The notes beneath the pieces are model-generated. The model had not been told where the DNA came from, did no database searches, and saw only the letters and a program-made list of their open reading frames with translations. Positions 27,245-52,031 of a stretch of 64,000 nucleotides of DNA are shown here, one piece after another. A program made the position numbers and the translations under genes. The stretch covers positions 130,131 through 194,130 of the forward strand of contig JAXGYZ010000003.1 of NCBI GenBank assembly GCA_040772005.1. Reading direction: 5' to 3'. Origin of the DNA: Anaerolineae bacterium (GTDB lineage Bacteria > Chloroflexota > Anaerolineae > CG2-30-64-16). The first letter of the stretch is position 1; each line of letters opens with the position of its first letter.

Positions 27245-27251
27245 AACGCTG

Positions 27252-28133: not shown

Positions 28134-28219
28134 GTCCCTCTCCCGTTTTCGACTGATGCTGCGGCGCATTCTACTCGCAAACGGGGATTCTGTCAGCAAA
28201 TCAGCCCACAATCAGGGGA

Positions 28220-28275
28220 AACAAAAACCCCGGTTTCAGAGGTGAAGCAAAGCTTCACACGAAACCGGGTTTTCT
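28220..28275 (-). terminator. Rho-independent terminator downstream of glnA
   Basis: Minus-strand RNA would form a hairpin (AAAACCCGGTTTC...GAAACCGGGGTTTT with an inner GTGAAGC-TTT-GCTTCAC stem) followed by TTTTGTTTCCCC. Confidence 0.6.
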
Positions 28276-28296
28276 GGGCGGGTTGCTCTGCTGATG

Positions 28297-29712
28297 TTAT
28301 GCGTCGAAATACAGCGTGAACTCGTGCGGGTGCGGGCGCATCCGGATCGGGTCGACCTCGGTCTCGCGCTTGTAGGCGATGTACGTCTTGAGCATGTCCG
28401 TCGTGAAGACGTCGCCCTTGAGCAGGAACTCGTGGTCCTCTTCGAGCGCCTTCAGGACCGCATCCAGCGAGCCCGGCACCTGCTTGATGAGCTTGGCTTC
28501 CTCCGGCGGCAGGCCGTACAGGTCCTTGTCCATCGGCTCGCCCGGGTCGATGCGGTTCTGGATGCCGTCCAGCCCGGCCATCAGCAGCGCGGCGAAGGCC
28601 AGATAGGGGTTGCACGACGGGTCGGGCGCACGGAACTCCACGCGCTTCGACTTGGCGCTCTTGGACCCGACCGGGATGCGGCAGATGGCCGACCGGTTGC
28701 GCTGCGAATAGGCCAGGTTGACGGGCGCCTCGAACCCGGGCACGAGGCGGCGATACGAGTTGGTCGTCGGCGCGACCAGCGCCAGCAGCGCGGGCGCGTG
28801 CTTCAGCAGGCCGCCGATGTAGAACTTGGCCGTATCCGAGAGCTGCGCGTAGCCCGTCTCGTCGTAGAATGCGTTCTTGCCACCCTTCCAGATGCTCTGG
28901 TGGCAGTGCATCCCGCTGCCGTTGTCGCCGTAGAGCGGCTTGGGCATGAAGGTGGCCGTCAGCCCGTTCTGCCGCGCCACGTTCTTGACCATGTACTTGT
29001 AGACCATCACGTTATCGGCCATGTGCAGCAGCGTGTCGAAGCGCATGCCGATCTCGCCCTGCCCGCCGGACGCGACCTCGTGGTGATGAATCTCCACCGG
29101 GATGCCCGCACTCTCGATGGCAAGCACGATGCGGCTGCGCACGTCCTGGAGGGTGTCCACGGGCGGGGTCGGGAAGTAGCCGCGCTTGGCCGCAATCTGC
29201 CCGCCGAAGTTGGGGCCGATGTCCTTGCCGCTGTTCCACCAGCCCTCGCGGCTGTCGATGTGATAGTACGCCTCGTTGGTGCTGCTGGCGTAACGCACGT
29301 CGCCGAAGATGAAGAACTCGGCCTCCGGCCCGAAGAAGACCGTGTCCCCGATGCCGGTCTGCTTCAGGTAGGTCTCGGCGCGGCGCGCGATGTAGCGCGG
29401 GTCGCGGCTGTATGGCTCGCGCGTGATGGGGTCGTAGACGTCCCCGATGATGACGAGCGTCGGCACCTGGTAGATGGGGTCGATGAACGCGGTCGTCGGG
29501 TCCAGCAGCAGGAGCATGTCCGATTCGTGGATTTCCTTGAAGCCGCGAATGGACGAACCGTCGAACGGGACGCCGTCCTCGAAGGTGTCTTCGGAGAGGA
29601 CATGCGCAGGAATCGTGAAGTGCTGCCAGACGCCGGGCAAGTCGGTAAAGCGCAGGTCGACCATCTGCACTTGTTTCGCCATTTCCATCACGTCAGCGAC
29701 TGTCTTGGACAT
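28297..29712 (-). CDS. glnA: Glutamine synthetase type I (GlnA)
   Basis: 471 aa. The N-terminal beta-grasp and the catalytic domain carry canonical GSI motifs (DLRFTDLPG, ...[11 protein letters not shown]..., [10 protein letters not shown], ...[10 protein letters not shown]). Confidence 0.95.
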
Positions 29713-29733
29713 GGAAAAGCCCTTTCGGTTGAG

Positions 29734-36233: not shown

Positions 36234-36303
36234 GGAGTCGAGGCTTCAGCCGGTTTGGGAGTGTACGAGCGTTCACTGTGTAATCGGCTCAAGCCTCGAC
36301 TCC
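36234..36303. repeat. Long-hairpin repeat family 2 (GGAGTCGAGGCTTCAGCCGGTT ... ATCGGCTCAAGCCTCGACTCC), copy 1
   Basis: ~19-bp inverted arms with one mismatch and a ~30-nt loop. Related copies at 60474-60561 (complete) and 55767-55789 (left arm only). Confidence 0.6.
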
Positions 36304-36463
36304 AACCTGCGGCAAGACGGCTGCGCTTCGGATTCCTGGACGCTCAACTCGATGACTTGTCGCGACGGGGATGATGCGTTATCATCTACCGTGCCCGCCG
36401 TGGTGCAATCGAGATGTCACGGCGCGGTGTAATGCTGAATTTGCGCAGGATGGAGTCTTCCTC

Positions 36464-37291
36464 ATGAGCGAGTATCAGTATCACGAATGGCAGACGATTG
36501 ACCGGCCCTTGACTGTGGCAGAACAGGCCGAGGTCGAGGAGTTTTCCAGCCACATCGCTGTCACGGCGACACGGGCCTGGGTGGAATACCACTGGGGTGG
36601 CTTCAGGCACGACCCGCTTGAAGTGCTGGCGCGTTATTTCGATGCCTTCCTGTATTACGCCAACTGGGGCGACCAGCGTCTGGCCTTCCGTTTTCCTGCC
36701 GGACTGCTCCGCGAGGCCGAGTTGCAGCCCTACCTGCGGGAGTGCTGCGTCGAGTTGACGCGCATGGGGGAGTGCGTCGTGCTGCATATGGCCTTCCCTA
36801 ACCGCTCTGCGGAGGATATCTTTGCGCAGCGCGGCGACCTGGCCGCGCTCACGCCGCTGCGCGACGACATCCTGCGCGGGGACTACCGCTGCCTGTACCT
36901 GGCCTGGCTGCTTGCCGCGGAAGACTCGGAACACAGCGAACTCGAGCTGGAGCCGCCCGTCCCCGCGGGCCTCGGCGAGCTGTCGCCCGCACTGGTGGAG
37001 TTCTGCGACTTCTTCGTGCTGGATGAGGCGCTCGTGGCCGCGGCCGCGGAGACCAGCCCGCCCCTGCAGCCGACCGGCGGCTTTCCGCTGGAGGCGGCGC
37101 TTGCCCGGCTGCCGGCAGACGAGTGCAACGAGTTCCTGCTCCGTCTGGCCCAGGGCGAGCCGCACCTGTCGCTGGCCCTCAACCGGCGGCTGCAGCAACT
37201 GGTGGAGATGCCCCGGCAGACCAGCGCAGCTCCACAGCGCACCTGGCGCGAGCTGCGCGAGCGGGCCGGGGGGGGGTGGGAGGACGCTTGA
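36464..37291 (+). CDS. Hypothetical protein (no recognisable family), orphan gene flanked by three repeat families
   Basis: ORF 36371..37291 trimmed to ATG 36464 (MSEYQYHEWQTIDRPLT...), 276 aa, acidic, no TM. GGAG lies 8 nt upstream. Confidence 0.5.
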   Translation: MSEYQYHEWQTIDRPLTVAEQAEVEEFSSHIAVTATRAWVEYHWGGFRHDPLEVLARYFDAFLYYANWGDQRLAFRFPAGLLREAELQPYLRECCVELTRMGECVVLHMAFPNRSAEDIFAQRGDLAALTPLRDDILRGDYRCLYLAWLLAAEDSEHSELELEPPVPAGLGELSPALVEFCDFFVLDEALVAAAAETSPPLQPTGGFPLEAALARLPADECNEFLLRLAQGEPHLSLALNRRLQQLVEMPRQTSAAPQRTWRELRERAGGGWEDA

Positions 37292-37411
37292 CCTCACCCC
37301 CCAACCCCCTCTCCTGGGCGCATACGCCCAGGAGAGGGGGAGCCGATGACTTCAAACCTACCATCTCCCCCTCTCCTGAACGAGTTCAGGCGAGGGGGCC
37401 GGGGGGTGAGG
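37292..37411. repeat. REP-like nested G/C-rich palindrome, copy 2 (with an extra CCCCCTCTCCTGAACGAGTTCAGGCGAGGGGG hairpin)
   Basis: CCTCACCCCCCAACCCCCTCTCCTGGGCG-CATA-CGCCCAGGAGAGGGGGAG ... GGGGGGTGAGG. Sits between convergent genes (hypothetical + / ogl -). Confidence 0.6.
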
Positions 37412-37417
37412 TCCCGT

Positions 37418-38608
37418 CTACGGCCGCACCAGGTACAGGTTGATCCGCCCCCCGAAATCCGACGCATACAGAATACGCGAGCCGTCCCAGCTCCAGGTGG
37501 GATGGCAGTGCGCGCTCTGCGTGTGCCACGAGGTCCGGTGGTGGCACAGGACGACCGGACGGGTGGCGTCGCCCGTGATGTCGATCAGCACGAGGTCGTC
37601 CACGTCGTCGCCCACCAGGCAGGTGTGGTCGGGGTTGGCATGGTAGTGGTTGCAGTAGTAGGGCATGTCGATGCGCCGCACCACATTGCCGTTCCGGTCC
37701 GCCAGGCCGACGAACGGCGTCATCGCGTTCTCGTTGACCTGCACATCGGTGACGACGGCCTGCGTGCGGGCCGACGTGATGGTGCCGTCGTGGCCCGGCC
37801 CGCGGTTGTCGAAGAAGATGTAGCCGTCGTTCGTCCAGAACTCGTGTCCCACCGAGTCCTCCGCAGTCTGGCGGAAGCAGGGCTTGGCCTCGCGCGCTAC
37901 GAAGTCCAGCAGCCAGATGCGCTGGGTGACCAGGTTCCACGGGCCCTCGTGGCAGAACGTGCCGAGCGTGCTGTCATCGGGGCAGAACTGGAAATGGCCG
38001 ACCTGGTGCGTGTCCTTGAACACATCGTACCAGCCTGAGCCGTCCAGGTGCGCGACTGTCACCCGGCCGTCCTTCACCCGGTAGAACCGTTCCTCGAATC
38101 CCGTGTAATTCGGCCCATCCTGCACGTGCACATCTTCGTTGCGGCAGAACGCGATATAGCGGCGGTTGGCTGCGATGGATGGCGCGCCGATGGTGTAGTT
38201 GCCGCCGTCCTCGTAGAGGATCGTAGTCTCGCCCGTTTCCGTGTCCAGCTTCTTGAGCGTGTCCTTGCCGATGCGGTAGACCACGATGCGGCTGTCGGGC
38301 GTCTTGGTCACGCTGCTCACGCCGCTGCCGCGACCGTTCTCCTCCGCCGGCTCGTCGGTGAGTTGGGTCATCACGCCGGTGCGCAGGTCCATGCGGAACA
38401 GGTTGTAGCAGGGGTGCTCGTGCGGCGCGCGATCCTCGCCGGCGGCCCGGTCGGAAAGGAAGATGATCTCGTCGCGCTGCGCATCGAACGAGTTCTCGGT
38501 GAAATACAGGTGATAGTTGTTGCCCCTAGCGGTGAGCTGTTGGATCTCACGGCCGGTCTTGGGATCGTTGAATGTGCGGATTTCGGAAGGCCAGGTTCGA
38601 CCGATCAT
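37418..38608 (-). CDS. ogl: Oligogalacturonide lyase (Ogl, polysaccharide lyase family 22)
   Basis: 396 aa. The TolB-like beta-propeller carries PL22-conserved blocks (FCHEGPWNLV..RIWLLD, HEFW, ...SWHTQSAHCHPTWSWDGSRILYASD) that match enterobacterial Ogl. Confidence 0.8.
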   Translation of the reverse strand: MIGRTWPSEIRTFNDPKTGREIQQLTARGNNYHLYFTENSFDAQRDEIIFLSDRAAGEDRAPHEHPCYNLFRMDLRTGVMTQLTDEPAEENGRGSGVSSVTKTPDSRIVVYRIGKDTLKKLDTETGETTILYEDGGNYTIGAPSIAANRRYIAFCRNEDVHVQDGPNYTGFEERFYRVKDGRVTVAHLDGSGWYDVFKDTHQVGHFQFCPDDSTLGTFCHEGPWNLVTQRIWLLDFVAREAKPCFRQTAEDSVGHEFWTNDGYIFFDNRGPGHDGTITSARTQAVVTDVQVNENAMTPFVGLADRNGNVVRRIDMPYYCNHYHANPDHTCLVGDDVDDLVLIDITGDATRPVVLCHHRTSWHTQSAHCHPTWSWDGSRILYASDFGGRINLYLVRP

Positions 38609-38633: not shown

Positions 38634-38969
38634 TCACCCTGCGACAAAGTCCTGGCGCATGGGCGTGAAGGCGTCCAGCAGCACCGTCGGTGCATAGGTC
38701 TTGATGTAGTGCTTGACGTCGGACGGCACGTAGTAGCTGCCGCCCTTGTGTAGGCGCACGGGTTCGTGCCCGGCCATGCAGAAGTCGATCTCGCCCTCGA
38801 CCACATAGCCGACCTGCTCGTGCGGATGGCTGTGCTCCCAGGAGGCCTTGCCCGCCTCAAACCTGAACTCGACCAGCATCAACCCCGCGCCGTAGCTCAG
38901 CACGCGGCGTTGGGCGCCATCCGGGGTGGTGACGGCGGGCTCATGCTCGGCATCGGCGATCAGTTTCAT
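38634..38969 (-). CDS. Small cupin protein, KdgF-like (pectin-degradation accessory cupin)
   Basis: 111 aa after trimming ORF 38634..40097 to ATG 38967-38969 (RBS GAGGGAG). Cupin motifs G(x)5HxH...E and G...H (WEHSHPHEQVGYVVEGE...PSDVKH). Immediately upstream of ogl, as in kdgF-ogl pairs. Confidence 0.6.
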   Translation of the reverse strand: MKLIADAEHEPAVTTPDGAQRRVLSYGAGLMLVEFRFEAGKASWEHSHPHEQVGYVVEGEIDFCMAGHEPVRLHKGGSYYVPSDVKHYIKTYAPTVLLDAFTPMRQDFVAG

Positions 38970-38991
38970 GTGTGGACTCCCTCGTGCTGTT

Positions 38992-39018
38992 GGTGTATAA
39001 TGTGCGTCATCATACACC
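38992..39018. promoter_or_regulatory. Palindrome GGTGTAT-N13-ATACACC overlapping a TATAAT hexamer in the divergent kdgF-ogl / hybrid-kinase promoter region
   Basis: GGTGTATAATGTGCGTCATCATACACC. Candidate operator/-10 region. No experimental support. Confidence 0.3.
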
Positions 39019-39047
39019 TGGAAGTCTGGCGGAGACAAACGCCGGTC

Positions 39048-42000
39048 ATGAGCCAACTGAAGACTCAACGCCCGCGGGCAAGGCGCCCGCGCGTCGGTTA
39101 CATCACCCCGAGAATCAGCGACCACAACGGGCTGGCTATCTGGAGCGGGATGCTGGAGACGGCCCGGTTGCATGGCGCGGATGTGCTGTGCTTTGCCGGC
39201 GGCGAGGTCAAGCATCCGGAAGGCGCAGCCGGCCGCGCCAACGCGATCTACGACCTGGTCGACCGGGCCAGCCTCGACGGCCTGGTGGTGTGGGGTTCCT
39301 CCCTCGGTTACTACGCCGGTCCTGAAGCCACTTACGAATTCTGCCGCCAGTTTGGGCCCCTGCCGCTCGTCAGCATCGGCGTCGCGCTGCCGGGCATCCC
39401 CGGCGTCGTCCTGGACAGCTACGGTGGCGAGCGCGCGCTCATGGCCCACCTCATCGAAGTCCACGGCCGCCGCCGGTTGGCCTTCATTCGCGGCCCCGAA
39501 GGCCACCGCGAGGCGCGCGAGCGCTACCGCGCATATCGCGACGCGCTGGCAGAATACGACCTGCCCTTCGACCCCGCGCTGGTCTCCCCGCCGTACCTCT
39601 GGATTCAAGCCGACGGCATCGAGATGAACTCGAACGGCGCGGAGGCGGTGCGCCTGTTCGTGGAGGAGCGCCGGGTCGAGTTCGATGCGCTGGTGTCGAC
39701 CAGCGACACTTTCATGCTGGGCGCGCTGCCCGCACTCCTGGAACGCGGGATTCGCGTGCCGGAGGATGTCTCCGTCGTCGGCTTCGATGACAAGCCCGCC
39801 ACCCGCCTCCTTTCCCCCGCCCTGACCACCGTCCAGATTCGCATGCGCGAGCGCGGCCGCCAGGCCCTTGAGCTCCTGCTCGCGCGCTTGAACGGCGAGG
39901 ACATTCCGGCTGAGGTCCTGCAGCCCGCGCGCCTGGTGATCCGGCGTTCGTGCGGCTGCTCGGATGCCGTTGAGGGCCGCGGGCAGGCGGCCGGTTTGCC
40001 CGCCGGTGAGCACGCCGAGGGTCTCGACGCGCTGACCGGCGAGCGTCGCGCGGCCGCGCTCGCGGTCCTGGCACAGCCGCTGGAAGCGGTGGACCAACCG
40101 GCCGCGCAGGCTGCGCCCCTGCTCGATGCATTCCTCGCAGAATTACAGGGCGAGCCCTCAGGCCTCTTCTTGCCGGCGTGGGATGCTCTCCTGGCGCACA
40201 CCGAGGATTCCGAGCGCGAGGTGTGGGACTGGCAGGAGGTCCTCCTGGCGCTGCGCGAGCAGGTGCTGCCGTATCTGACCGCTGACCCGGTCCGGCTGCG
40301 GCAGGCGGAAGACCTCTGGCATCACGCGCGTTCGCATGTCGGGGAACGTGCCTGGCGCGTGCAGGCGCGCGCGGGCCACTACGCCGGCCAGCAGTCCGAC
40401 CGGCTCTATGCCCTCAGCCGGTCGTTGGCCCTGGCCGCGGACGTCCCCGAGCTGATGGATATCCTCGCGCGCATGCTGCCCGAACTGAATATCGCTTCCT
40501 GCCATGTGGCCCTGTACGAGGACCCGGACAACCCGGCGGGTGCGTGCCGGCTGGTGCTGGCCTACGATGAGCGCGGGCGGGCCAACCTGCCGCCGGAGGG
40601 CGTGCAGTGGTCCGCGCCGGTGCTGGCGTCGGGCGGCGCATTCGGGCAGACCGCGTCCCGCCAGAGCATCGTGGTCGAGCCGCTGTACTACCGGGACGAG
40701 CCGCTCGGCTTCATCATGCTGGACGGCAGCCGGAGCGAGGGCCAGGTCTACCGCGTCATCCAGGAGCAGGTGAGCAGCGCGCTCAAGAGCGTGCGGCTGC
40801 TGGAGGAGAACCGGCGGCTGTATCTGGCCGCGCTGGATGGGCAGCAGGCTGCGCAGGATCGGCAGCGCCTGGCCGAAGAAGCCAATCGTCTGAAGAGCCG
40901 TTTCCTCTCGATGGTGAGCCACGAGCTGCGTACGCCCCTGATCCTGCTGGAGGGACTGAGCGAGATGATGCTGCGCGAGGGGAACGGCGACCGGCCGCCG
41001 CTGCCGGCCTCGTACCGGCAGGACCTCGCGCGCATCCGCGCCACCTCGCAGCAGCTCAGCGGGCTGGTGCGCGACGTGCTCGACCTCTCGCGCAGCCAGA
41101 TGGGGCAGTTGCGGCTGGCCGTCACGCCGGTGGACCTGGCCAGCGTGTTGCAGCCGGCGCTGCTCATGGGTGAACAGATGGCGTTCGGCAAGGGCCTGGA
41201 CTGGCATGTGGAGATTGCGCCGGGCCTGCCCCTGGTCAACGGCGATGCGGCCCGGCTGCGGGAGGTGACGCTCAATCTCATCGCCAACGCAGTCAAGTTC
41301 ACCGCGCGCGGGGAAGTGCGCGTGCGCATCGAAGCGTCCGACGGCACGGCCACCGTTTCTGTCAGCGATACAGGCCTCGGCGTGCCGCGCGACGAGCAGC
41401 AGGCCATCTTCGATGAGTTCCGCCAGTCCGAACGCACGGCCACGCGCGGCTTCGGCGGGCTGGGGGTGGGGTTGGCTATCTGCCGCCAGATCATCCAACT
41501 GCACGGTGGGTCCATCGGCGTGCATTCGTCCGGCCAGGAAGAAGGCGGCTCGCGCTTCTACTTCACCCTGCCGGCGCTGCACGCGAGCGCCGGCGTAGAA
41601 CCGGCGGAGACGGCGGCCTGGGATGGCAGCACGGTGGTGCTTCTGGTCGAGCAGGCGGACAACGCCGCGCTGCTGCGCTCCCACCTGGAACAGCAGGGTT
41701 ACGCCGTCGACGTACTGGCCGCTGCTGAGGCCGGCGACTGGCTGGCCCGCCTCAGCGCCACCCCGCCGGGCGCTGTGATTCTGGACCTCCAGCCGGCGTG
41801 GGAGTATGGCTGGCGGCTGGTGGACGCGCTGCGACACAACCAGACCACACAGGGCGTGCCCATCCTGCTCTATTCGCTGCTGGCTGGGCGTGACGAGGGC
41901 GCAGTGCTGGCCGTGGACTACCTGGCGAAGCCCATGGGCGCGGCCGCGCTGACCCAGGCGCTGCAGAACCTCGGTGTGGCGACCTCGCAGCCAGCGGAGA

Positions 42001-42740
42001 ATGCGGCCATCCTGGTCGTGGACGACGACCCGGAGATTCGGGCCCTGCACGGCGACCTGGTCCGCACCCATTTCCCCAACTGCCGGATTCTGCTGGCCGC
42101 GAACGGGCGGCAGGCGTTGGAGCTGCTCGATGGCGGCGCACGCCCGTTGTTCGTCCTCCTGGACCTCATGATGCCGGAGCTGGATGGCGTCGGCGTGCTT
42201 GAGGCGATGCAGCGCAGTGCGCAGTTGCGGGACATTCCCGTCATCGTGCTGACGGCCCAGTGCCTGTCGGATGAAGACCTGGCCCGCCTGAATCGCGGGG
42301 TGGGCGCGATCCTGCAGAAGGGCGTCTTCTCCACGGACGAGACGCTGGCCCACATTGAGCGGGCGCTGGCGCGCAACCGGCGGCTGGGCAGCGAGTCGCA
42401 ACGGCTGGTGCGCAAGGCGATGGCCTATATGCACACCCATTACGCGCAGGACCTGACGCGCAGCCAGCTCGCGCGGAACGTGGGCCTGAGCGAGCGCCAC
42501 CTGGCACGCTGCTTTGCTGCTGAGGTGGGGCTTTCGCCCATGGATTACCTCAACCGCTACCGTATCGCGCAGGCGCGGCGCCTGCTTGATGAGAGCGACG
42601 CCGGCATCGCGCAGGTGATGGAGGCTGTTGGCTTCGGCGACAGCAGCTACTTCGCCCGCATCTTCCGCCGCGAGACCGGCATGTCACCCCGCGCCTATCG
42701 CGGCCGCAAGGACTCTACCGGTCTTCCCCGCTCCCAGTGA
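39048..42740 (+). CDS. Soluble hybrid sensor histidine kinase/response regulator: N-terminal LacI-type periplasmic-binding-fold (PBP1) sugar-sensor domain without HTH, central sensor region, HisKA + HATPase_c, two REC domains, C-terminal AraC-type HTH
   Basis: ORF 38766..42740 trimmed to ATG 39048 (MSQLKTQRP...; GGAG upstream). Features in N- to C-terminal order:
- PBP1/LacI ligand-binding signature (VGYITPRISDH...VVGFDD).
- H-box SHELRTPL.
- G1/G2 boxes (GLGVPRDEQQAIFDEF...GFGGLGVGLAI).
- Two REC (ILVVDDDPEI..., FVLLDLMMPELDG).
- AraC HTH at the end.
No TM segment detected. Confidence 0.8.
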   Translation: MSQLKTQRPRARRPRVGYITPRISDHNGLAIWSGMLETARLHGADVLCFAGGEVKHPEGAAGRANAIYDLVDRASLDGLVVWGSSLGYYAGPEATYEFCRQFGPLPLVSIGVALPGIPGVVLDSYGGERALMAHLIEVHGRRRLAFIRGPEGHREARERYRAYRDALAEYDLPFDPALVSPPYLWIQADGIEMNSNGAEAVRLFVEERRVEFDALVSTSDTFMLGALPALLERGIRVPEDVSVVGFDDKPATRLLSPALTTVQIRMRERGRQALELLLARLNGEDIPAEVLQPARLVIRRSCGCSDAVEGRGQAAGLPAGEHAEGLDALTGERRAAALAVLAQPLEAVDQPAAQAAPLLDAFLAELQGEPSGLFLPAWDALLAHTEDSEREVWDWQEVLLALREQVLPYLTADPVRLRQAEDLWHHARSHVGERAWRVQARAGHYAGQQSDRLYALSRSLALAADVPELMDILARMLPELNIASCHVALYEDPDNPAGACRLVLAYDERGRANLPPEGVQWSAPVLASGGAFGQTASRQSIVVEPLYYRDEPLGFIMLDGSRSEGQVYRVIQEQVSSALKSVRLLEENRRLYLAALDGQQAAQDRQRLAEEANRLKSRFLSMVSHELRTPLILLEGLSEMMLREGNGDRPPLPASYRQDLARIRATSQQLSGLVRDVLDLSRSQMGQLRLAVTPVDLASVLQPALLMGEQMAFGKGLDWHVEIAPGLPLVNGDAARLREVTLNLIANAVKFTARGEVRVRIEASDGTATVSVSDTGLGVPRDEQQAIFDEFRQSERTATRGFGGLGVGLAICRQIIQLHGGSIGVHSSGQEEGGSRFYFTLPALHASAGVEPAETAAWDGSTVVLLVEQADNAALLRSHLEQQGYAVDVLAAAEAGDWLARLSATPPGAVILDLQPAWEYGWRLVDALRHNQTTQGVPILLYSLLAGRDEGAVLAVDYLAKPMGAAALTQALQNLGVATSQPAENAAILVVDDDPEIRALHGDLVRTHFPNCRILLAANGRQALELLDGGARPLFVLLDLMMPELDGVGVLEAMQRSAQLRDIPVIVLTAQCLSDEDLARLNRGVGAILQKGVFSTDETLAHIERALARNRRLGSESQRLVRKAMAYMHTHYAQDLTRSQLARNVGLSERHLARCFAAEVGLSPMDYLNRYRIAQARRLLDESDAGIAQVMEAVGFGDSSYFARIFRRETGMSPRAYRGRKDSTGLPRSQ

Positions 42741-42824
42741 TGGTTCTAGCCGTTGTGGAGTGGAGCGTCCTCAGACGCGGAACGGTCCCTAGCGCGTGCC
42801 CGTCCGCGTTTGAACCGCATGCCC

Positions 42825-42846
42825 GTCCGCATTTGAGAATGCGGAC
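42825..42846 (+). terminator. Hairpin GTCCGCAT-TTGAGA-ATGCGGAC followed by TCCTCTTCTC. Candidate terminator after the hybrid kinase gene
   Basis: 8-bp stem, 6-nt loop, pyrimidine-rich tail. Weak as an intrinsic terminator. Confidence 0.35.
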
Positions 42847-43050
42847 TCCTCTTCTCAATCACGGCCCCACAATTTGACCTAATTGTATTGAAAGAAGTCC
42901 CAATCGAACAAGACACGGCCCGTCCTCGGGGAGTATCATAAGCATGCGCCCCCATGGTGTGCGCTACGCTGCCAGTATTTCCTTCTATCTATGCGGCCAC
43001 CCAAACGCGATGTTGTGCTCCCAGTGCCGTGGCAGGCGAGGAAGAACCCG

Positions 43051-43506
43051 ATGACGCAGGCTGTCACTCCAGAGACCGTGGTGATGGCAAAGAGCGCGTT
43101 GATCGCCGTCGAGGATCCGAACATCCTCTATCTGCTCCAGCGTTACGCGGAGGAGAGCGGCTTTGAGACGGCCACTGCGCACGCGAGCATGGAAGTCCTT
43201 GGCCGGGCCACGCACCTGCACCCGGCCTTCATCATTCTGGATGGCGCGCTGCCCGAAACTACCGGCCGGAAGCTGCTGTCCCGCCTACAGGCGCACGCCG
43301 ACACCTGCACCATTCCGGTCATTCTCTATATCAGCCCGGACGACCCGGCCGCCCCATGGACGGCAGGCGCCGCCGGGTGCCTGCCTAAATCGGTCAAGTA
43401 CGCGGATTTCCTGACCATGCTGGCGCACATCGGCGTGTTGCATGGCAACCATGTGAGCAGCGGCTGCGTGGCAGACGACGCAGTCACCGCCGCCCCTGAC
43501 ATTTGA
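43051..43506 (+). CDS. Stand-alone receiver-domain (CheY-like) response regulator
   Basis: REC fold with acidic pocket and phospho-acceptor ([11 protein letters not shown]...). Start is ambiguous (ATG at 43051 or 43084). No output domain. Confidence 0.55.
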
Positions 43507-43513
43507 GAACAGG

Positions 43514-44560
43514 ATGCGTCTCATGTCCGAGCAACTGAGCGAGCGCCCCAAGCTCCTTGAGGTCGTTGACCTGAAGAAGCACTTCCCCATCAAGCGCGGG
43601 TTCCTTTTCGCGAAGGAAGTCGGCGCGGTCAAAGCCGTGGACGGCGTGAGCCTCTTCATCCGCGAAGGCGAGACGCTGGGGCTGGTCGGCGAGAGCGGCT
43701 GCGGGAAGACCACGATTGGCCGGCTCATTCTGCGCGCCTATAACCCGACCGCCGGCCAGATCTGGTTCCAGGATCGCCGTATGGGGCGGGTGGATGTCGC
43801 CCGGATGAATGAGGGCGAACTGCGCGAGCTGCGCCAGAACATGCAGCTCATCTTCCAGGACCCCTACTCCTCGCTCAATCCGCGCATGACGCTGCTCGAA
43901 ATCGTCGGCGAGCCGCTGCGCAACCATGGCATTGCCAAAGGCAGCGAACTCAAGGAGCGCGTCGCCGAGCTGCTCAAGGTCGTCGGCCTGCGGCCCGAGT
44001 ACATGACCCGCTATCCGCACGCGTTCAGCGGCGGGCAGCGCCAGCGCATCGGCGTCGCGCGGGCACTGGCGCTGCATCCCCAGCTCGTCGTCTGCGACGA
44101 GCCTGTGTCGGCCCTGGACGTCTCCGTCCAGGCGCAGATTCTCAACCTGCTGCAGGGCCTGCAGGGCGACTTCGGCCTGACGTACCTGTTCATCTCGCAT
44201 GACCTGAGCGTGGTCGAGCACATCAGCGACCGCGTCGCCGTGATGTACGTGGGGAAACTTGTGGAGAGTGCCACCACGACCGAACTCTTCCTGGCCCCCC
44301 GTCATCCTTACACCGAGGCTCTGCTCTCCTCGGTGCCCAAGCCGGACCCCCGTGTCCGCACCGAGGCTGTGCCATTGACGGGTGAAGTAGCCGACCCGGC
44401 ACATCCACCCAGCGGCTGCTATTTCCATCCGCGCTGCAGGTATTGCATCGACCGGTGTACCACCGAGGAACCGGTGCTGCGGGAAATATCACCCGATCAC
44501 TTTGTCAGTTGTCACCGGGCCGAAGAGCTGCGCCTGCTCGGTGTGGCTGGCCTGGCGTAG
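43514..44560 (+). CDS. Opp/Dpp-family ABC transporter ATP-binding protein (OppF/DppF-like)
   Basis: Walker [10 protein letters not shown], signature [15 protein letters not shown], Walker [13 protein letters not shown], and the C-terminal oligopeptide-transporter extension with Cys-rich tail. Confidence 0.85.
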
Positions 44561-44623
44561 GCGGGGCTGCCTGCAACGCACGCTGTTGGCGCAACGTTTC
44601 ATTTTCAAGGAGGAAGTTAGGCA

Positions 44624-46690
44624 ATGAAACAGCGAATGATCACACGACGTGAGTTCCTGCGGCTGTCTGCGATGGGCGCCGTAGGAGCAGCGGCGGCGGC
44701 CTGCGGCGGACAGCAGACGCCGGCCCCCGCGGCCGAACCGACGGCTGCACCCGCAGCCGAACCGACCGCCGCACCTGCCGCGGAGCCGACGGCCGTCCCC
44801 GAGGCCGTCAAGGCCACTGAAGCGCCCGTCGCGGCCGCGGGCAAGTACCAGGAAGCGCCCATGCTGGCCGAACTGGTCCAGGCGGGCTCGCTCCCGCCGG
44901 TCGATGAGCGGCTGCCCATCAACCCCGCCATCATGGAGAGCTACGAGGGCATCGGTAACTACGGCGGCAACTGGCGCCGCGGCTTCAAGGGCGTGTCCGA
45001 CCGCTGGGGGCCGACCAAGCTGGTGGACCGCAACTGGGCCTGGTTCGACAAGGATCTCAACCTCCAGCCGCGCCTGATGGAGTCCTGGCAGGTCTCCGAC
45101 GATGGCCGCGAGTGGACCATCAAGCTGCGCGAGGGCACCAAGTGGTCCGACGGCACCGAGTTCACTACGGACGACTTCGCGTTCTGGTACGAACACGAAC
45201 TGCAGAACAAGAAGGTCAACGCCAGCCTGCCCACCGTGTGGCGCTCGGATGCCGAGACGCCGGTCGAGTTCACTGCGGTCGACAAGTACACGGCCAAGTT
45301 CGCCTTCACGAAGCCCAAGCCGATGCTGATCTACTACAATACGCGCGGCGGCATGGGCGGGCCGATGACCCCCAGCCACTACATGAGGAAGTTCCACGAG
45401 GACACCACCGACGACAAGGCGGCCATGGAAGCTGAGATCAAGGAGCGCGGCTACGACAGTTGGGAGCGCTACTACATCGACTACAAGTCGTGGTGGTACA
45501 TGGATCCCAACAAGCCGGTCCTGAGCCCCTGGCTGGCAAAGGGTGAGCTCTCCACCGAGCTCTTCATCATGGAGCGCAACCCCTACTTCTTCGCCGTGGA
45601 CCCGGAGGGCAAACAATTGCCCTATATCGACACCGTCACGCATCGCCTGTTCGAGTCGGATGAGGTGCTCAACCTGTGGCTGACCAACGGCGAGATCGAC
45701 ATGCAGGCCCGGCACCTGAGCCTCGCCAACCTGGCCCTCTATAAGAGCGGCGAGGAGAAGGGCGATTACGCGACGATTCTGGCCATCCATGCGAGCCACA
45801 TCGCCATGCAGATTAACCATAGCTGCAAGAATCCGCAGCTCTACGAGCTGTTCAACGATCTCAAGGTGCGGCAGGCCATGAACGCGGCGATCAACCGTGA
45901 AGAGGTCAACGAGCTCATCTTCAACGGCATGCTCAAGCCGCGGCAATACAGCCCGCTGCCTATGTCGCCGCAGTACTACGAGAAGGCCGAGAAGGCCTGG
46001 ATCGAGTATGACCCCGACCTGGCGAACCAGTTGATGGACGAGGCCGGCTACACCGAGAAAGATGCGCAGGGCTTCCGCCTGTTCAAGGACGGCAGCGGCC
46101 CGATCACCTTCATCATCGAAGGCACCGATCAGACCGGCACGCCCACCGAGGATGCGGTCCTGCTCGTGAGCAGCTACCTGGAGAAGATCGGCATCAAGGC
46201 CACCTACAAGTACTCGGAGCGCGCGCTCTACACCGAGCACTACGAGGCCAACGAGATCGAGGCGGCCTGGTGGGGCGGCGACCGCACGGTGCTGCCGCTC
46301 GTGCCGGAGGCCATCATCTTCCGCGGCGTCCAGCCGGACCGGCCGTGGTGCCCGGGCTGGGGCTTCTTCTACACCGACCCGACCAACCCCGCCGCGGTCG
46401 AGCCGCCGGCCGACCACTGGATCCGGGACATCTGGAAGATCTGGGACGAGGAGATCGTCGTCGAGGTCGATCCTGAAAAGCAGACCGCGGCCTTCAAGAA
46501 GATCCTGGACATCTGGGCCGAGCAGCTGCCCATGATCGGCGTCCTGGGCGAGCAGCCGACACCGACCATCGTCAAGAACGGCTTCAAGGGCTACCCGCCC
46601 GGTATGCCGAACGACGACACCACCGGCGACGAGCAGTTCTGCCAGAGCGAGACGTACTACTGGGACGATCCGACGAAGCATACGATGTAG
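44624..46690 (+). CDS. ABC transporter substrate-binding protein, family 5 (Opp/Dpp-type), Tat signal
   Basis: Twin-arginine leader (TRREFLRLSAMGAVGAAAAACGG), Ala/Pro/Thr linker, and 688-aa SBP_bac_5 architecture. RBS AAGGAGG. Confidence 0.85.
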   Translation: MKQRMITRREFLRLSAMGAVGAAAAACGGQQTPAPAAEPTAAPAAEPTAAPAAEPTAVPEAVKATEAPVAAAGKYQEAPMLAELVQAGSLPPVDERLPINPAIMESYEGIGNYGGNWRRGFKGVSDRWGPTKLVDRNWAWFDKDLNLQPRLMESWQVSDDGREWTIKLREGTKWSDGTEFTTDDFAFWYEHELQNKKVNASLPTVWRSDAETPVEFTAVDKYTAKFAFTKPKPMLIYYNTRGGMGGPMTPSHYMRKFHEDTTDDKAAMEAEIKERGYDSWERYYIDYKSWWYMDPNKPVLSPWLAKGELSTELFIMERNPYFFAVDPEGKQLPYIDTVTHRLFESDEVLNLWLTNGEIDMQARHLSLANLALYKSGEEKGDYATILAIHASHIAMQINHSCKNPQLYELFNDLKVRQAMNAAINREEVNELIFNGMLKPRQYSPLPMSPQYYEKAEKAWIEYDPDLANQLMDEAGYTEKDAQGFRLFKDGSGPITFIIEGTDQTGTPTEDAVLLVSSYLEKIGIKATYKYSERALYTEHYEANEIEAAWWGGDRTVLPLVPEAIIFRGVQPDRPWCPGWGFFYTDPTNPAAVEPPADHWIRDIWKIWDEEIVVEVDPEKQTAAFKKILDIWAEQLPMIGVLGEQPTPTIVKNGFKGYPPGMPNDDTTGDEQFCQSETYYWDDPTKHTM

Positions 46691-46694
46691 AACC

Positions 46695-46811
46695 GATTGA
46701 AGATTGCAGATTGAAGATTGAAGATTGGCCAGAGGTGGTGGATTGAGGATTCGTGTAATCTTCAAGCCGGGAGAAGTGTAGCTTCGCACATCTTCAATTT
46801 TCAATCTGCAA
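46695..46811. repeat. Heptamer tandem repeat (GATTGAA/GAAGATT x4-5) with inverted copies downstream. Intercistronic stem-loop element between the SBP and permease genes
   Basis: Direct units GATTGAAGATTGCAGATTGAAGATTGAAGATTGG at 46695-46728. Inverted units AATCTTCAAG at 46757-46766 and CATCTTCAATTTTCAATCTGCAA at 46789-46811. Confidence 0.6.
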
Positions 46812-46826
46812 CCCGGGAGGCTGCCC

Positions 46827-47816
46827 ATGTTTGCCTATATCGTGCGTCGGGTGCTCATCATGATTCCGACGCTGTTTCTGATCTCGATCATCTCCTTTGT
46901 CGCCATCCAGCTGCCGCCGGGCGACTACCTGACGTCGTATGTCGCCACCCTGCGCACGATGGGCGAGAACATCGACCAGGAGCAGCTGGATTCGATGCGG
47001 GAGCGGTACGGCCTGGGCCAGCCCGTGTATGTGCAGTACTTCAAATGGATCGGCGGCATCCTCCTGCGCGGGGATTGGGGCCAATCGTTCGAGTGGCAGA
47101 AGCCCGTCAAGGAGTTGATCGGGGAACGCCTGCTGCTAACGGTGATCCTGTCGTTTGTATCACTGCTGGTCGGGTGGTTCATCGCGATCCCGATCGGCGT
47201 CTATTCCGCGACTCACCAGTATTCGGTCCTTGATTACATCTTGTCTGTCATTAGTTTCATAGGGGTCGGCGTGCCCGGCTTTCTCCTCGCGCTGATCGTG
47301 ATGTACTTCGCGCAGACCCAGCTCCAGATGAATGTGGGCGGGCTGTTTTCGCAGGAGTACATCAATGCGCCCTGGAGCCTCGGGCGGGTGCTGGACATGC
47401 TGAAGCACCTGTGGATTCCGGTGGTGATTTTGGCCGTCGAGGGGACCGCCGCCGGCATCCGCACCACGCGCGCCAACCTGCTCGACGAGCTGAACAAGCC
47501 CTACGTCGAGCTGGCGCGGGCCAAGGGCATGAACGAGCTGAAGCTCATCTGGAAGTATCCCGTGCGGGTCGCGCTGAATCCGTTCTTCAGCACCGTCGGC
47601 TGGTCGCTGGCGAACCTCATTTCGGGGGCTACGCTGATTTCGGTGGTGCTGAGCCTCCAGACGACCGGCCCGATGCAACTGCGGGCGCTGACCTCGCAGG
47701 ATATGTACCTCGCCGGCAGCTTCCTGCTGCTGCTCAGTGCCCTGACCGTCATCGGCACGCTGATATCGGACATCCTGCTCGCGTGGGTTGATCCGCGCAT
47801 CCGACTGGAGCGATAA
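46827..47816 (+). CDS. Opp/Dpp-family ABC transporter permease (OppB/DppB-like)
   Basis: 329 aa, six TM helices, and the conserved binding-protein-dependent permease EAA-like loop (…ELARAKGMNELKLIWKY…). Confidence 0.85.
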   Translation: MFAYIVRRVLIMIPTLFLISIISFVAIQLPPGDYLTSYVATLRTMGENIDQEQLDSMRERYGLGQPVYVQYFKWIGGILLRGDWGQSFEWQKPVKELIGERLLLTVILSFVSLLVGWFIAIPIGVYSATHQYSVLDYILSVISFIGVGVPGFLLALIVMYFAQTQLQMNVGGLFSQEYINAPWSLGRVLDMLKHLWIPVVILAVEGTAAGIRTTRANLLDELNKPYVELARAKGMNELKLIWKYPVRVALNPFFSTVGWSLANLISGATLISVVLSLQTTGPMQLRALTSQDMYLAGSFLLLLSALTVIGTLISDILLAWVDPRIRLER

Positions 47817-47817
47817 C

Positions 47818-48999
47818 ATGACCGTCTCTGCACCGATGGACCGGCCCCTGGAGAGCCCGGGCCCGACCGAAGGCCCGGCCTCCGAAGACGAGATCGCCCC
47901 CGGCGGGGAAAGCGTCTATGTCGCACCCCCGTGGAAGCTGATGTGGTGGCGTTTCCGCAAACACAAGCTGGCGATGGTCAGCGCGGTCATCCTGATCCTG
48001 TTTTACTTCAGCGCGGCCTTCTCCGAGTTCGTCGCACCCTACATTCCGGAGCAGCCCTTCATTCGCTATAAGTTCGCCCCGCCGACCCGCATCCATTTCA
48101 TCGATGCAGAGGGACGGCCCCGGGCTCCGTTCATCTACCAGACCGTGCGCGGCGTCGATCCGGTCACGGCGCAGCCCACCTATACCGAGGATACGACCAT
48201 CCGCTATCCGATCCGGTTCTTCGTGCAAGGCGAGCCATACGAGTGGCTCGGTCTGATTCCATCGAGCCTCCACCTGTTCGGCGTGCCGGATGCCGGGGAA
48301 AACCAGGGCGTCTTTCTGTTCGGTGCGGATCGGCTGGGCCGCGATATGTTCTCGCGCATCGTTTTCGGCGGACGGCTCTCGCTGTCGCTGGGCCTGGTCG
48401 GCGTCTTTCTCAGCCTGATCCTGGGCGTCGTGCTGGGCGGCGTGTCGGGCTACTTCGGCGGGTGGGTCGACACGCTGGTGCAGCGCGTCATCGAGTTCAT
48501 CCGCACTATCCCGACCATTCCGTTGTGGATGACGCTGAGCGCGGCCATGCCGGCCAACTGGCCGGTGACGCGGGTCTATTTCGGGATCACCATCATCCTG
48601 TCGCTGGTCGGCTGGACGTTCATGGCGCGCGTCGTGCGCGGGCGCTTCCTGGCGATGCGCGAGGAAGACTTCGTGCTGGCGGCCCGGCTGAACGGCGCGC
48701 GCGAGATGCGCGTCATCCTGCGCCACATGGTGCCGTCGTTCCTCAGCTACATCATTGCGTCGCTCACGCTGTCGATTCCCGGCATGATCCTGGGCGAGAC
48801 GGGCCTGAGCTTTCTCGGCCTGGGGCTGCGGCCGCCGGCCATCAGTTGGGGCGTGCTGCTGCAGGAGGCGATGAACCTGCGCTCGCTCGTGCTGGCGCCC
48901 TGGGTGCTGGCGCCCGGCCTGGCCGTTGTGATCTCCGTGCTGGCGTTCAACTTCGTCGGCGACGGCCTGCGCGATGCCGCCGATCCGTATTCTCGTTAG
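47818..48999 (+). CDS. Opp/Dpp-family ABC transporter permease (OppC/DppC-like)
   Basis: Start at ATG 47818, 1 nt after the oppB-like stop. Long N-terminal region typical of OppC, and permease signature (…VLAARLNGAREMRVILRHM…). Confidence 0.85.
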   Translation: MTVSAPMDRPLESPGPTEGPASEDEIAPGGESVYVAPPWKLMWWRFRKHKLAMVSAVILILFYFSAAFSEFVAPYIPEQPFIRYKFAPPTRIHFIDAEGRPRAPFIYQTVRGVDPVTAQPTYTEDTTIRYPIRFFVQGEPYEWLGLIPSSLHLFGVPDAGENQGVFLFGADRLGRDMFSRIVFGGRLSLSLGLVGVFLSLILGVVLGGVSGYFGGWVDTLVQRVIEFIRTIPTIPLWMTLSAAMPANWPVTRVYFGITIILSLVGWTFMARVVRGRFLAMREEDFVLAARLNGAREMRVILRHMVPSFLSYIIASLTLSIPGMILGETGLSFLGLGLRPPAISWGVLLQEAMNLRSLVLAPWVLAPGLAVVISVLAFNFVGDGLRDAADPYSR

Positions 49000-49004
49000 T
49001 GTGG

Positions 49005-49072
49005 ACAGGATTCACAGGATTGACAGGATGATGCCGCCGGTTTTGTCCTGTGCAGCCTGTCGATCCTGTCTG
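49005..49072. repeat. ACAGGATT repeat element (3 direct units followed by inverted GTCCTGT/ATCCTGTC units). Intercistronic hairpin between oppC-like and oppD-like genes
   Basis: GACAGGATTCACAGGATTGACAGGAT...GTCCTGTGCAGCCTGTCGATCCTGTC. Same motif family as 60369-60422. Confidence 0.55.
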
Positions 49073-49089
49073 AGTTAGGAGCTTGTGGT

Positions 49090-50130
49090 ATGAAGCAGGA
49101 CCAGCTGCTCGTCGAAGTCAAGGACCTGAAGACTTACTTCTTCCTGGACGAGGGCACCGTGCGCGCGCTGGACGGCGTGGATTTCAACATCTACCGCGGG
49201 CAGACCATCGGCGTGGTGGGCGAGAGCGGCTGCGGCAAGAGCGTGACCGCGCGCTCCATCCTGCGGATTGTGCCGCGGCCCGGCCGCATCGTGAGCGGCG
49301 AGATCAACTTCTACCGCCGGCCTGAGGACAGCAGCGGGCAGATCGAGGTCCTGAAGCTGCACGAACTGGACCCGCTCGGCCAGACCATGCGCAGTATCCG
49401 CGGGGCCGAGATTGCGCTCGTGCCCCAGGAGCCGATGGCCTCGCTGAGCCCGGTCTACACCATCGGCAACCAGATCTCCGAGGCCATCATGCTGCACCAG
49501 GGGGTGAACCGGGACGTCGCGCGGCAGAAGACCATCGAGATGCTGGAGCTGGCCGGCTTTCCCAAGCCCCGCGAGCGCATCGACTCGTACCCGCACCAGC
49601 TCTCCGGCGGGCTGCGCCAGCGCGCGGTCATCGCCATGGGCCTCTCCTGCCATCCCAGCCTGCTCATCGCGGACGAGCCGACGACCGCGCTGGACGTGAC
49701 GACGGAGGCGCAGATCCTCCGCCTGATGCGCAATTTGCAAGGTGAACTCGGTATGGCTATCATGTTCATCACGCACAACCTGGGTGTCGTCGCGCAGATG
49801 ACCGAGGACGTCATCGTGATGTACATGGGCAAGGTGGTCGAATCTGCCAGCGTGGATGCCATCTTCCACAACGCAAAGCACCCGTACACCCAGGCGCTCC
49901 TGCGCTCCATCCCGCGGCTGGGCCAGAAGACGCAAGGCCGCCGTGTGCTGGAGTCGATTCGCGGGACCGTCCCGGACCCCTACACCCGGCCGCAGGGGTG
50001 TGCCTTCCACCCGCGCTGCTCTATGCGCATCCCGGGTGTCTGTGATCGGGATGTGCCGCCGTGGGTCGAGGTCGAGCCGGGGCACTTTGCGCGGTGTGTG
50101 CTCTATGGGAATCCTATGAAGACGGCATAG
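49090..50130 (+). CDS. Opp/Dpp-family ABC transporter ATP-binding protein (OppD/DppD-like)
   Basis: Walker A GESGCGKSVT, signature LSGGLRQRAVIAMGL, Walker B LLIADEPTTALD, and C-terminal Cys-containing extension. Confidence 0.85.
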   Translation: MKQDQLLVEVKDLKTYFFLDEGTVRALDGVDFNIYRGQTIGVVGESGCGKSVTARSILRIVPRPGRIVSGEINFYRRPEDSSGQIEVLKLHELDPLGQTMRSIRGAEIALVPQEPMASLSPVYTIGNQISEAIMLHQGVNRDVARQKTIEMLELAGFPKPRERIDSYPHQLSGGLRQRAVIAMGLSCHPSLLIADEPTTALDVTTEAQILRLMRNLQGELGMAIMFITHNLGVVAQMTEDVIVMYMGKVVESASVDAIFHNAKHPYTQALLRSIPRLGQKTQGRRVLESIRGTVPDPYTRPQGCAFHPRCSMRIPGVCDRDVPPWVEVEPGHFARCVLYGNPMKTA

Positions 50131-51983: not shown

Positions 51984-52003
51984 AGATTGAAGATTGAAGA
52001 TTT
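51971..52003. repeat. Heptamer tandem repeat (GATTGAA x3-4) overlapping the radical SAM stop codon
   Basis: GATTACAGATTGAAGATTGAAGATTGAAGATTT. The TGA stop lies within the first unit. Confidence 0.6.
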
Positions 52004-52031
52004 CGACTCAAGGCTTCCCTGAGGGAGGGTC

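Follow-up and report, generated by a model that had tools for sequence, protein, structure and literature searches.

A 64,000-nucleotide stretch of an Anaerolineae bacterium genome (contig JAXGYZ010000003.1; hereafter the window) encodes, at positions 39048-42740 of the forward strand, a single-chain two-component protein of 1230 residues that is fully cytoplasmic. From N- to C-terminus it is composed of a LacI-type periplasmic-binding-protein (PBP) fold, a four-helix bundle, a GAF fold, HisKA, HATPase, a degenerate receiver (REC1), a canonical receiver (REC2) and an AraC-type helix-turn-helix (HTH). We consider it moderately probable that this protein senses an imported pectin-derived sugar in the cytoplasm and, through a phosphorelay to its AraC domain, activates the operon of the adjacent transporter. 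Confidence is much higher for the architecture than for this proposal as a whole, and lower for the ligand and the operator.

Overall architecture of the regulator

The features of the regulator gene are as follows.

39048-42740, + strand: hybrid two-component gene (translation, Pfam, homologues at 30-95% identity)
39084-39956, + strand: LacI/GalR-type type-I PBP ligand-binding domain, aa 13-303 (Pfam Peripla_BP_3/BP_1; phmmer against the PDB)
39942-39959, + strand: exit motif of the PBP domain, R-x-S-C-G-C, aa 299-304 (invariant in all 36 aligned homologues)
40038-40430, + strand: four-helix bundle, aa 331-409, and connecting long helix, aa 414-461 (AlphaFold2 model)
40443-40880, + strand: GAF-fold domain, aa 466-559, and signalling helix, aa 565-611, running into the DHp (predicted structure)
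40893-41576, + strand: histidine kinase core, HisKA aa 616-685 (H625) and HATPase_c aa 732-843 (Pfam)
41643-41963, + strand: REC1, divergent receiver fold, aa 866-972 (Pfam Response_reg, alignment columns)
42009-42326, + strand: REC2, canonical receiver, aa 988-1093 (Pfam, alignment columns)
42468-42704, + strand: AraC/XylS-type DNA-binding domain (HTH_18), aa 1141-1219 (Pfam, E 5.8e-26)

The open reading frame (ORF) is stop-free over 1230 codons, and its GC content at third codon positions (GC3), 0.85, is typical for genes of the window, which has 67% GC. An in-frame extension is possible up to GTG 38766. Because this extension runs antisense to the divergent kdgF-like gene and the promoter region, and homologues begin at the same place with the same short N-terminus, ATG 39048 is taken as the start. 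In the N-terminal part, Pfam matches Peripla_BP_3 at aa 134-302 (E 7e-31) and Peripla_BP_1 at aa 30-298; the C-terminal part contains HisKA (616-685), HATPase_c (732-843), two stretches of Response_reg, the best at 988-1093, and HTH_18 (1141-1219).

Hydropathy was screened by the Kyte-Doolittle scale with a 19-residue window and the usual threshold of 1.6. The scan reveals no signal peptide or hydrophobic N-terminal segment in the protein, and no transmembrane (TM) helix on either side of the PBP domain, the finding that the sequence-only reading of this DNA had named as decisive against a cytoplasmic sensor. The sole window above the threshold, aa 104-122 (PLPLVSIGVALPGIPGVVL, 1.81), contains four prolines and three glycines and sits in the middle of the PBP fold. 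Only 12 residues precede this fold, and a LacI-type HTH is therefore absent; HTH_LacI (PF00356) has no match in the protein, in 120 listed homologues or in 48 sampled proteins of the wider module family described below.

Most of what the sequence-only reading had claimed for the protein is confirmed by these results: an ORF of this length with a LacI-type domain, a histidine kinase, two receiver folds and a C-terminal AraC HTH, and lacking a LacI HTH, a signal peptide and TM segments. Two of its claims are modified. Both receiver folds exist, but REC1 is degenerate and lacks the Mg-binding acidic pair; the sensor region postulated between the PBP domain and the kinase is present, and is now refined to a four-helix bundle and a GAF fold lying outside Pfam.

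The sensor half

In phmmer searches against the PDB, aa 13-303 match a LacI transcription-factor regulatory domain with an E-value of 2.7e-39, followed by PurR, CcpA, LacI and the LacI-like domain of Escherichia coli XylR. The alignment with ligand-binding LacI regulators runs end to end, as the earlier assignment of a LacI-type ligand-binding fold had anticipated, and this comparison identifies the N-terminal domain as a genuine member of the LacI-family regulatory domains. R159 and an FDD motif at 245-247 are conserved in the homologue alignment; these residues presumably correspond to the effector-contacting positions of LacI.

The R-x-S-C-G-C motif marks the exit of the PBP domain, and among the 48 sampled proteins of the wider module family its conservation is 90% or more. 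The CxC pair at this dimer junction suggests, as pure speculation, an inter-subunit metal site or a redox switch.

The roughly 300 residues that link the PBP domain to the kinase match nothing in Pfam at E<=1 and no sequence in the PDB. An AlphaFold2 model of aa 305-612, built with 27 homologues as input, has a mean predicted local distance difference test score (pLDDT) of 89.8. In this model, the alpha/beta domain at aa 466-559 is confidently predicted to be a GAF fold.

Kinase core, receivers and DNA-binding domain

The catalytic columns were read from an alignment of 36 homologues, 30 of which form the Chloroflexota clade. Within that clade, H625, N747, the G1 box (DxGxG; D774, G776 and G778) and the G2 box (G804 and G806) are retained in 30/30 sequences, as are D992, D993, D1039, T/S1069 and K1091 of REC2; such conservation implies selection for catalysis. 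When aa 866-972 are scanned alone, REC1 scores 32 bits for Response_reg against a cutoff of 30.2 and spans profile positions 3-110 of 111. D913 and K961 are retained, and the acidic-pair positions are occupied by E868 and Q869. As these Mg-binding positions vary freely across the family, REC1 is probably not a normal phospho-acceptor. The C-terminal double HTH that defines the AraC/XylS family is recognised by Pfam.

Promoters and a candidate operator

Comparisons between loci refer to related loci (labelled L001 and so on). Of 592 relatives, the best 80, mostly full-length, were used; the 592 are not family-specific (generic H-box pattern, 29-sequence alignment). The control elements around the regulator gene are listed below.

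38973-39001, + strand: promoter of the regulator gene, TGGACT-17-TATAAT, 10/12, sigma-70-like (promoter scan)
39009-39038, - strand: kdgF-ogl promoter, TTGTCT-18-TATGAT, sigma-70-like (promoter scan, orthologue comparison)
42825-42846, + strand: hairpin with a 9-bp stem, -16 kcal/mol, followed by a U/C-rich tract (RNAfold)
42876-42903, + strand: candidate AraC operator, direct repeat GACCTAA / GTCCCAA with a 21-bp period, adjoining the -35 box (conservation, position)
42910-42939, + strand: promoter of the receiver-ABC operon, AAGACA-18-TATCAT, with a weak -35 box (promoter scan; conserved in L081, L082 and L001)

Downstream of the regulator gene, and immediately upstream of the weak promoter for a small receiver gene and the ABC transporter genes, lies a tandem repeat with the consensus tTGTCCCAAw and a 21-bp period. 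The repeat occupies the same position in L001, L002, L003, L010, L044, L081 and L082. The window contains a single GTCCCAA where 5.35 are expected, and the bipartite pattern likewise has one match; in 1.27 Mb of related loci it has eight, five of them at the operator position. Direct repeats two helical turns apart next to a weak -35 box are the classical geometry of AraC-family activators, and the poor -35 box downstream of the repeats is as expected for an activator-dependent promoter. Because the repeat is conserved and stands in this geometry, 42876-42903 is likely to be the operator of the AraC domain, with the receiver-ABC operon as its direct target.

The 78-bp divergent region between kdgF and the regulator gene is filled by two overlapping sigma-70-like promoters (two sites in the scan against 0.0 expected). 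Its conserved blocks in orthologues are exactly the promoter hexamers, and the -10 box of the regulator gene is conserved in L081 and L082. No activator-type site or tandem repeat is visible in these 78 bp. The divergent promoter at 38970-39047, earlier suggested for reporter assays, is present as two promoters but lacks an activator site, the repeat being found instead at 42876-42903. With its near-consensus promoter, the regulator gene is probably expressed constitutively.

Two further candidates for the operator were rejected. The imperfect palindrome TGTATAATG...CATCATACA in the divergent region arises from the -10 boxes of the two promoters, which face each other and are both kept in orthologues. 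As for the direct repeat TGCCCGTCCGCRTTTGA (about 42795-42835), it falls within a stretch missing from L081, part of which forms a terminator-like hairpin.

The missing stretch, 42741-42870, comprises the approximately 130 nt between the regulator stop codon and the predicted operator, and L081 is an orthologous locus with 95% identity. The hairpin at 42825-42846 is a possible terminator of the regulator gene and was not called in the consensus terminator scan. Rfam has no match in the window, and the 5' untranslated regions contain no known riboswitch or leader. In L083, at 12086-12300, about ten tandem 21-nt units (AGTGACTCCGCTGATACTTTC / AGTGACTCTGATGACACTCTG) stand just upstream of a GTCCCAA site; they could encode an SDSxDT(F/L) heptad-repeat peptide or constitute a repeat array.

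A small stand-alone receiver

The first gene of the putative target operon encodes a second, separate receiver.

43051-43506, + strand: atypical receiver of 151 aa, starting at ATG 43051 (Pfam Response_reg, 41 bits)

Eight nucleotides separate this gene from the following ATPase gene, and it is predicted to be co-transcribed with the transporter. The receiver also has 151 aa in L081, and its gene directly follows the regulator gene in 15 related loci. Its orthologues share one strongly conserved helix; the phospho-acceptor position is occupied by D, E or Q, and the lysine is not always kept. The small receiver thereby looks like a pseudo-receiver partner of the regulator. A role as a phosphate sink is unlikely for the family, because many orthologues lack the acceptor aspartate. 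Our preferred reading, offered as a guess, is that the system induces its own allosteric modulator of the kinase. The top NCBIfam match, a DivK-like single-domain family (E 1.7e-8), fits this idea.

Relatives and the wider sensor module

A search of 5.8 billion proteins gives 339 matches at E<=1e-20, more than 90 of which have the same full-length architecture at 34-95% identity. The named full-length homologues come from metagenome-assembled genomes (MAGs) of Chloroflexota/Anaerolineae and are annotated merely as 'substrate-binding domain-containing protein'. The best 80 loci, taken from one genome per GTDB species, are nearly all from Chloroflexota, with a few from Spirochaetes; among them are Anaerolineae, Caldilineae, Ardenticatenaceae, Thermoflexales and the isolate Chloroflexus sp. 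MS-G. Several MAGs contain two copies of the regulator.

The bundle-GAF region extends well beyond this architecture. Searched exhaustively against 1.84 billion cluster representatives, its profile matches 4283 proteins at E<=1e-3 and 1561 at E<=1e-30, the total of approximately 4300 being a count of clusters at 50% identity. The match nearly always begins near residue 300, that is, behind the PBP domain. Among 48 of the top matches, Pfam identifies Peripla_BP_3 in 44, HisKA/HATPase in 25-28, additional PAS/GAF domains in 16, REC in nine and an AraC HTH in two, with single cases of GGDEF, MCP signalling, STAS, Hpt and ROK. Any 19-residue hydropathy window of at least 2.0 is present in only 4 of 267 relatives. 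On the strength of the start position behind the PBP domain, the census of outputs and the hydropathy of the 267 relatives, the LacI-type PBP domain with the bundle-GAF is assigned as a general soluble input module, of which kinase-REC-REC-AraC is one output variant. Members of the module family adjoin different sugar-catabolic operons.

Actinobacterial homologues (Actinophytocola, Streptomyces; 30-35% identity) retain the whole PBP-bundle-GAF-kinase-REC-REC-AraC scaffold. In six of the aligned sequences (P0097, P0099, P0101, P0105, P0108 and P0116), H625 is replaced by D or G, the N and G1 boxes are lost and D1039 is changed to A or S. The Actinobacterial proteins appear to form a 'phospho-dead' lineage and may act as one-component regulators.

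The pectin-oligosaccharide locus

The neighbouring genes are arranged as follows.

37418-38608, - strand: oligogalacturonate lyase ogl (PL22), 396 aa (Pfam PF14583, full length, E 3.5e-18)
38634-38969, - strand: kdgF-like cupin, 111 aa, the divergent neighbour (Pfam Cupin_2; present in L081 and L082)
43514-50130, + strand: Opp/Dpp-type ABC transporter, whole (Pfam; synteny with related loci)
43514-44560 and 49090-50130, + strand: transporter ATPases (Pfam)
44624-46690, + strand: transporter lipoprotein SBP_bac_5 (Pfam)
46827-47816 and 47818-48999, + strand: transporter permeases (Pfam)
50151-61375, + strand: same-strand downstream genes (Pfam, NCBIfam)
59518-60333, + strand: IolB/KduI-family isomerase-like (Pfam, NCBIfam)
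60611-61375, + strand: KduD-like SDR dehydrogenase (Pfam, NCBIfam)

The regulator gene is divergent from kdgF-ogl and upstream of an oligosaccharide transporter, as had been described before; the 151-aa receiver gene lying between regulator and transporter had gone unnoticed. The cupin is assigned as KdgF-like by its size, fold and context. The substrate-binding protein of the transporter has a leader of the Tat/lipoprotein type. The genes at 50151-61375 encode a B12-radical SAM protein, an unmatched 860-aa protein, a URO-D-like protein, a glycoside hydrolase (GH) of family GH4, a HAD hydrolase, a GH88/GH105 enzyme, an IolB/KduI-like protein and a KduD-like protein. Taken together, the gene content marks the surroundings as a uronate/pectin-oligosaccharide utilisation locus with a predicted cytoplasmic lyase. 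The N-terminus of ogl has no signal peptide, and the substrates of the lyase must therefore be imported; since it acts in the cytoplasm, candidate inducers are available inside the cell.

The order ogl-kdgF, divergent regulator, small receiver, Opp-type ABC transporter and radical SAM is kept in L081 (95% identity) and L082 (67%), and the portion from the regulator through the receiver to the ABC genes is also kept at 48-63% identity in L001, L002, L005, L010 and L044. In L083, a 46%-identical regulator precedes genes for GH88/105, GH28, KduI, KduD and Eda. A GH88/105 gene lies at most 10 kb away in 15 related loci, Spirochaetes included.

Several other features of the window were noted. Between the transporter and the glycoside hydrolases, 50151-55730 contains the B12-binding radical SAM protein, the 860-aa protein and the URO-D-like protein. 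The 860-aa protein has no match in Pfam, NCBIfam or the PDB, and in three related loci (L020, L034 and L065) it directly follows the small receiver; this region may have an unrecognised carbohydrate-modifying or demethylating function. A 22-nt element resembling repetitive extragenic palindromic (REP) sequences, GGAGTCGAGGCTTCAGCCGGTT, has five intergenic copies against 0 expected, located within 36234-36303, 55767-55788 and 60474-60561, with two pairs inverted. A long G/C-rich inverted repeat, CCTCACCCCCCAACCCCCTCTCC...GGGGGCCGGGGGGTGAGG, at 37292-37417 between ogl and a convergent 306-aa ORF (36371-37291), is probably a bidirectional terminator. On the minus strand, 12273-21050 holds an ORF of about 2900 codons with a gene-like GC3 of 0.86. 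Upstream of the locus, also on the minus strand, a nitrogen-regulation cluster at 23405-29733 comprises a GAF-histidine kinase, P-II, an ammonium transporter, Hsp33 and glutamine synthetase.

Proposed mechanism and alternatives

In the proposed mechanism, an oligogalacturonide would be imported and acted on by cytoplasmic Ogl/KdgF, KduI and KduD, while the sensor gene would be expressed constitutively from its near-consensus promoter. The LacI-type domain would bind the imported sugar or an early product, and the resulting conformational change would pass through the CGC junction to the helical bundle, the GAF domain and the kinase dimer. Autophosphorylation at H625 and phosphoryl transfer to D1039 of REC2 would follow. 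The AraC domains, thereby released, would bind the two GTCCCAA-type repeats, which are spaced by 21 bp and centred near -46 and -67 of the promoter at 42910-42939. Activation of the small receiver and transporter operon would create a positive feedback on inducer uptake, which the induced small receiver, binding back to the kinase as a modulator, would temper.

Several points weigh against this mechanism. Its ligand, phosphotransfer and DNA binding are read from sequence, and the class of ligand from gene context alone; the specific candidates of the sequence-only reading, unsaturated digalacturonate or 2-keto-3-deoxygluconate (KDG), are suggested by the same context. When one mismatch is allowed, about 0.7 matches of the operator pattern are expected by chance in the window. 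The kdgF-ogl genes and the distal catabolic genes have no recognisable operator, and the regulon may be the transporter operon alone or may use undetected sites. REC1, with D913 and K961 in place, could still join the phosphotransfer. Lastly, the losses in Actinobacteria indicate that the scaffold can work without phosphorylation in some lineages.

Four alternatives were weighed. The first, which we regard as unlikely, treats the LacI-type domain as a dimerisation scaffold or as a binder of a protein partner, comparable to CcpA and HPr-Ser-P, with the signal entering through the GAF domain or the small receiver. In its favour, ligand binding is frequent among GAF domains, and such a fold is predicted here with confidence; the N-terminal domain counts CcpA among its PDB relatives; and the small receiver gene is tightly linked. 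Yet the PBP domain defines the family, being present in 44/48 sampled module proteins whatever their output; it aligns from end to end with ligand-binding LacI regulators, and it conserves R159 and FDD 245-247, presumably the effector-contact positions of LacI. The variety of sugar-catabolic operons beside family members also fits sugar-specific sensing.

Negative wiring, in which the ligand switches the kinase to a phosphatase or the AraC domain represses the downstream operon, is distinctly improbable. The sequence does not fix the sign of the response, and bifunctional HisKA kinases are common; however, the repeats lie upstream of and next to the weak -35 box (AAGACA) and overlap neither the -10 box nor the transcription start, which is the usual arrangement for activation by AraC proteins.

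A vestigial phosphorelay is judged highly improbable. The protein would then be a one-component regulator similar to XylR, whose kinase and receiver domains serve as a dimeric spacer while the ligand repositions the AraC domains directly. E. coli XylR, in which a LacI-type domain drives an AraC domain directly, offers a precedent, as do the Actinobacterial homologues, which have lost the phosphorylation residues with the architecture intact. Against it, H625, the N, G1 and G2 boxes and the five REC2 residues are preserved throughout the 30 Chloroflexota-clade sequences.

A conventional periplasm-sensing hybrid two-component system (HTCS), with a TM helix or signal peptide overlooked or its true start upstream, is effectively refuted: the window at aa 104-122 does exceed the threshold, but it is rich in proline and glycine and internal to a PBP fold that both Pfam and PDB relatives support. 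The domain has no hydrophobic segment on either side, an upstream start would run through kdgF and the promoters, and homologues have the same short N-terminus and no TM-like windows. Cytoplasmic sensing of an imported sugar, relayed by phosphorylation to an activating AraC domain, is the preferred reading.

Novelty and significance

No paper on a cytoplasmic HTCS with a LacI domain, or on any HTCS in Chloroflexota, was found in the open-access literature, a scope in which absence is no proof. The proteins are already in public databases under generic names, and the architecture is new as a described system, not new to databases. The earlier view of it as unusual and poorly described outside Bacteroidetes is accurate as regards the literature and inaccurate as regards occurrence, the architecture being common in Chloroflexota and present in some Spirochaetes.

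A broader interpretation is put forward tentatively, at slightly less than even credence: the LacI-type domain with the bundle-GAF would be an unrecognised, widespread cytoplasmic sugar-sensing module, and its Chloroflexota kinase-REC-AraC form a convergent, membrane-free counterpart of the Bacteroides HTCS. This form would govern glycan-utilisation loci by sensing sugars after import instead of in the periplasm, and a pseudo-receiver partner and a possibly metal-binding CGC junction would be its novel mechanistic features. The module would feed histidine kinases, hybrid kinase-AraC proteins, STAS/RsbU-type proteins, GGDEF and MCP outputs.

With this interpretation, the concept of an HTCS in one polypeptide would no longer be confined to Bacteroidota or to sensing at the membrane, and there would be a model for the regulation of glycan loci in Chloroflexota, which are abundant but poorly studied degraders of polysaccharides. 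An intracellular sugar-sensing histidine kinase becomes directly testable, as a soluble protein with candidate ligands and a candidate operator. The regulator is not unique to this genome; no study of its large family was found, and the family is now opened to study. A description of the module would annotate thousands of proteins now named 'substrate-binding domain-containing protein'. LacI-type domains are readily re-engineered, and a soluble LacI-phosphorelay-AraC chain could serve as a biosensor chassis.

Comparison with known systems

The HTCS of Bacteroides (e.g. BT1754, BT4124 and BT4663) are transmembrane kinases that sense in the periplasm (Gao, Wu & Stock 2024, PMC11253607), in agreement with the sequence-only reading that they share the kinase-REC-AraC layout but sense through TM-anchored domains. 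An HTCS-specific motif, (S/C)HIP, is located in their REC alpha3-beta4 loop (PMC11253607). Like these systems, the Chloroflexota protein combines a kinase (HisKA and HATPase_c), a receiver and an AraC-type HTH in one polypeptide and is encoded beside the glycan-utilisation genes it presumably controls, here ogl, kdgF, the ABC genes, GH4, GH88/105 and the KduI- and KduD-like genes. The closest PDB match of REC2 with the DNA-binding domain is also an HTCS fragment, 12aw ('hybrid two-component system protein', E 1.3e-24). BT1754 has a PBP-type sugar-binding sensor as well.

Unlike Bacteroides HTCS, the Chloroflexota protein has no TM helix or signal peptide, carries a sensor of the LacI-regulator type followed by a bundle-GAF transmitter, and contains an extra, degenerate receiver. 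RDIP replaces (S/C)HIP (...NICHIPIIVLSA... in 12aw, ...QLRDIPVIVLTA... in the Chloroflexota protein), and the range covers Chloroflexota with some Spirochaetes and Actinomycetes, with no Bacteroidota among the matches listed. Because its sensor is neither transmembrane nor periplasmic, the motif is altered, a receiver is added and no Bacteroidota relatives are listed, the protein is set apart and is not filed as a member of the Bacteroides-type HTCS family. Its kinase-REC-AraC fusion may have arisen independently.

E. coli XylR (PDB 4FE4 and 4FE7; Ni et al. 2013, as cited in PMC11253607) resembles the protein in that it begins with a cytoplasmic LacI/GalR-type ligand-binding domain lacking a LacI HTH and ends in an AraC DNA-binding domain. 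Searches of the PDB recover both XylR domains, the PBP part at E 6e-7 and the DNA-binding domain at E 1e-6. In XylR, however, the two are joined directly, with no phosphorelay, whereas about 840 residues with intact catalytic residues lie between them here.

The YesM/YesN systems of Firmicutes likewise place a REC-AraC output over sugar/oligosaccharide ABC transporter operons. Fragments of family members are labelled 'YesN/AraC family two-component response regulator' by the Joint Genome Institute (JGI), and the structure of a YesN DNA-binding domain, 3lsg, is among the PDB matches of REC2 with its DNA-binding domain. YesMN systems, in contrast to the single soluble chain here, divide kinase and regulator between two proteins, and their kinase sits in the membrane and senses outside the cytoplasm.

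The LacI/GalR repressors LacI, PurR and CcpA have a homologous effector-binding domain (E down to 2.7e-39). The Chloroflexota protein differs from them in having neither an N-terminal HTH_LacI nor a hinge; its output instead exits at the C-terminal end of the domain, through the R-x-S-C-G-C junction.

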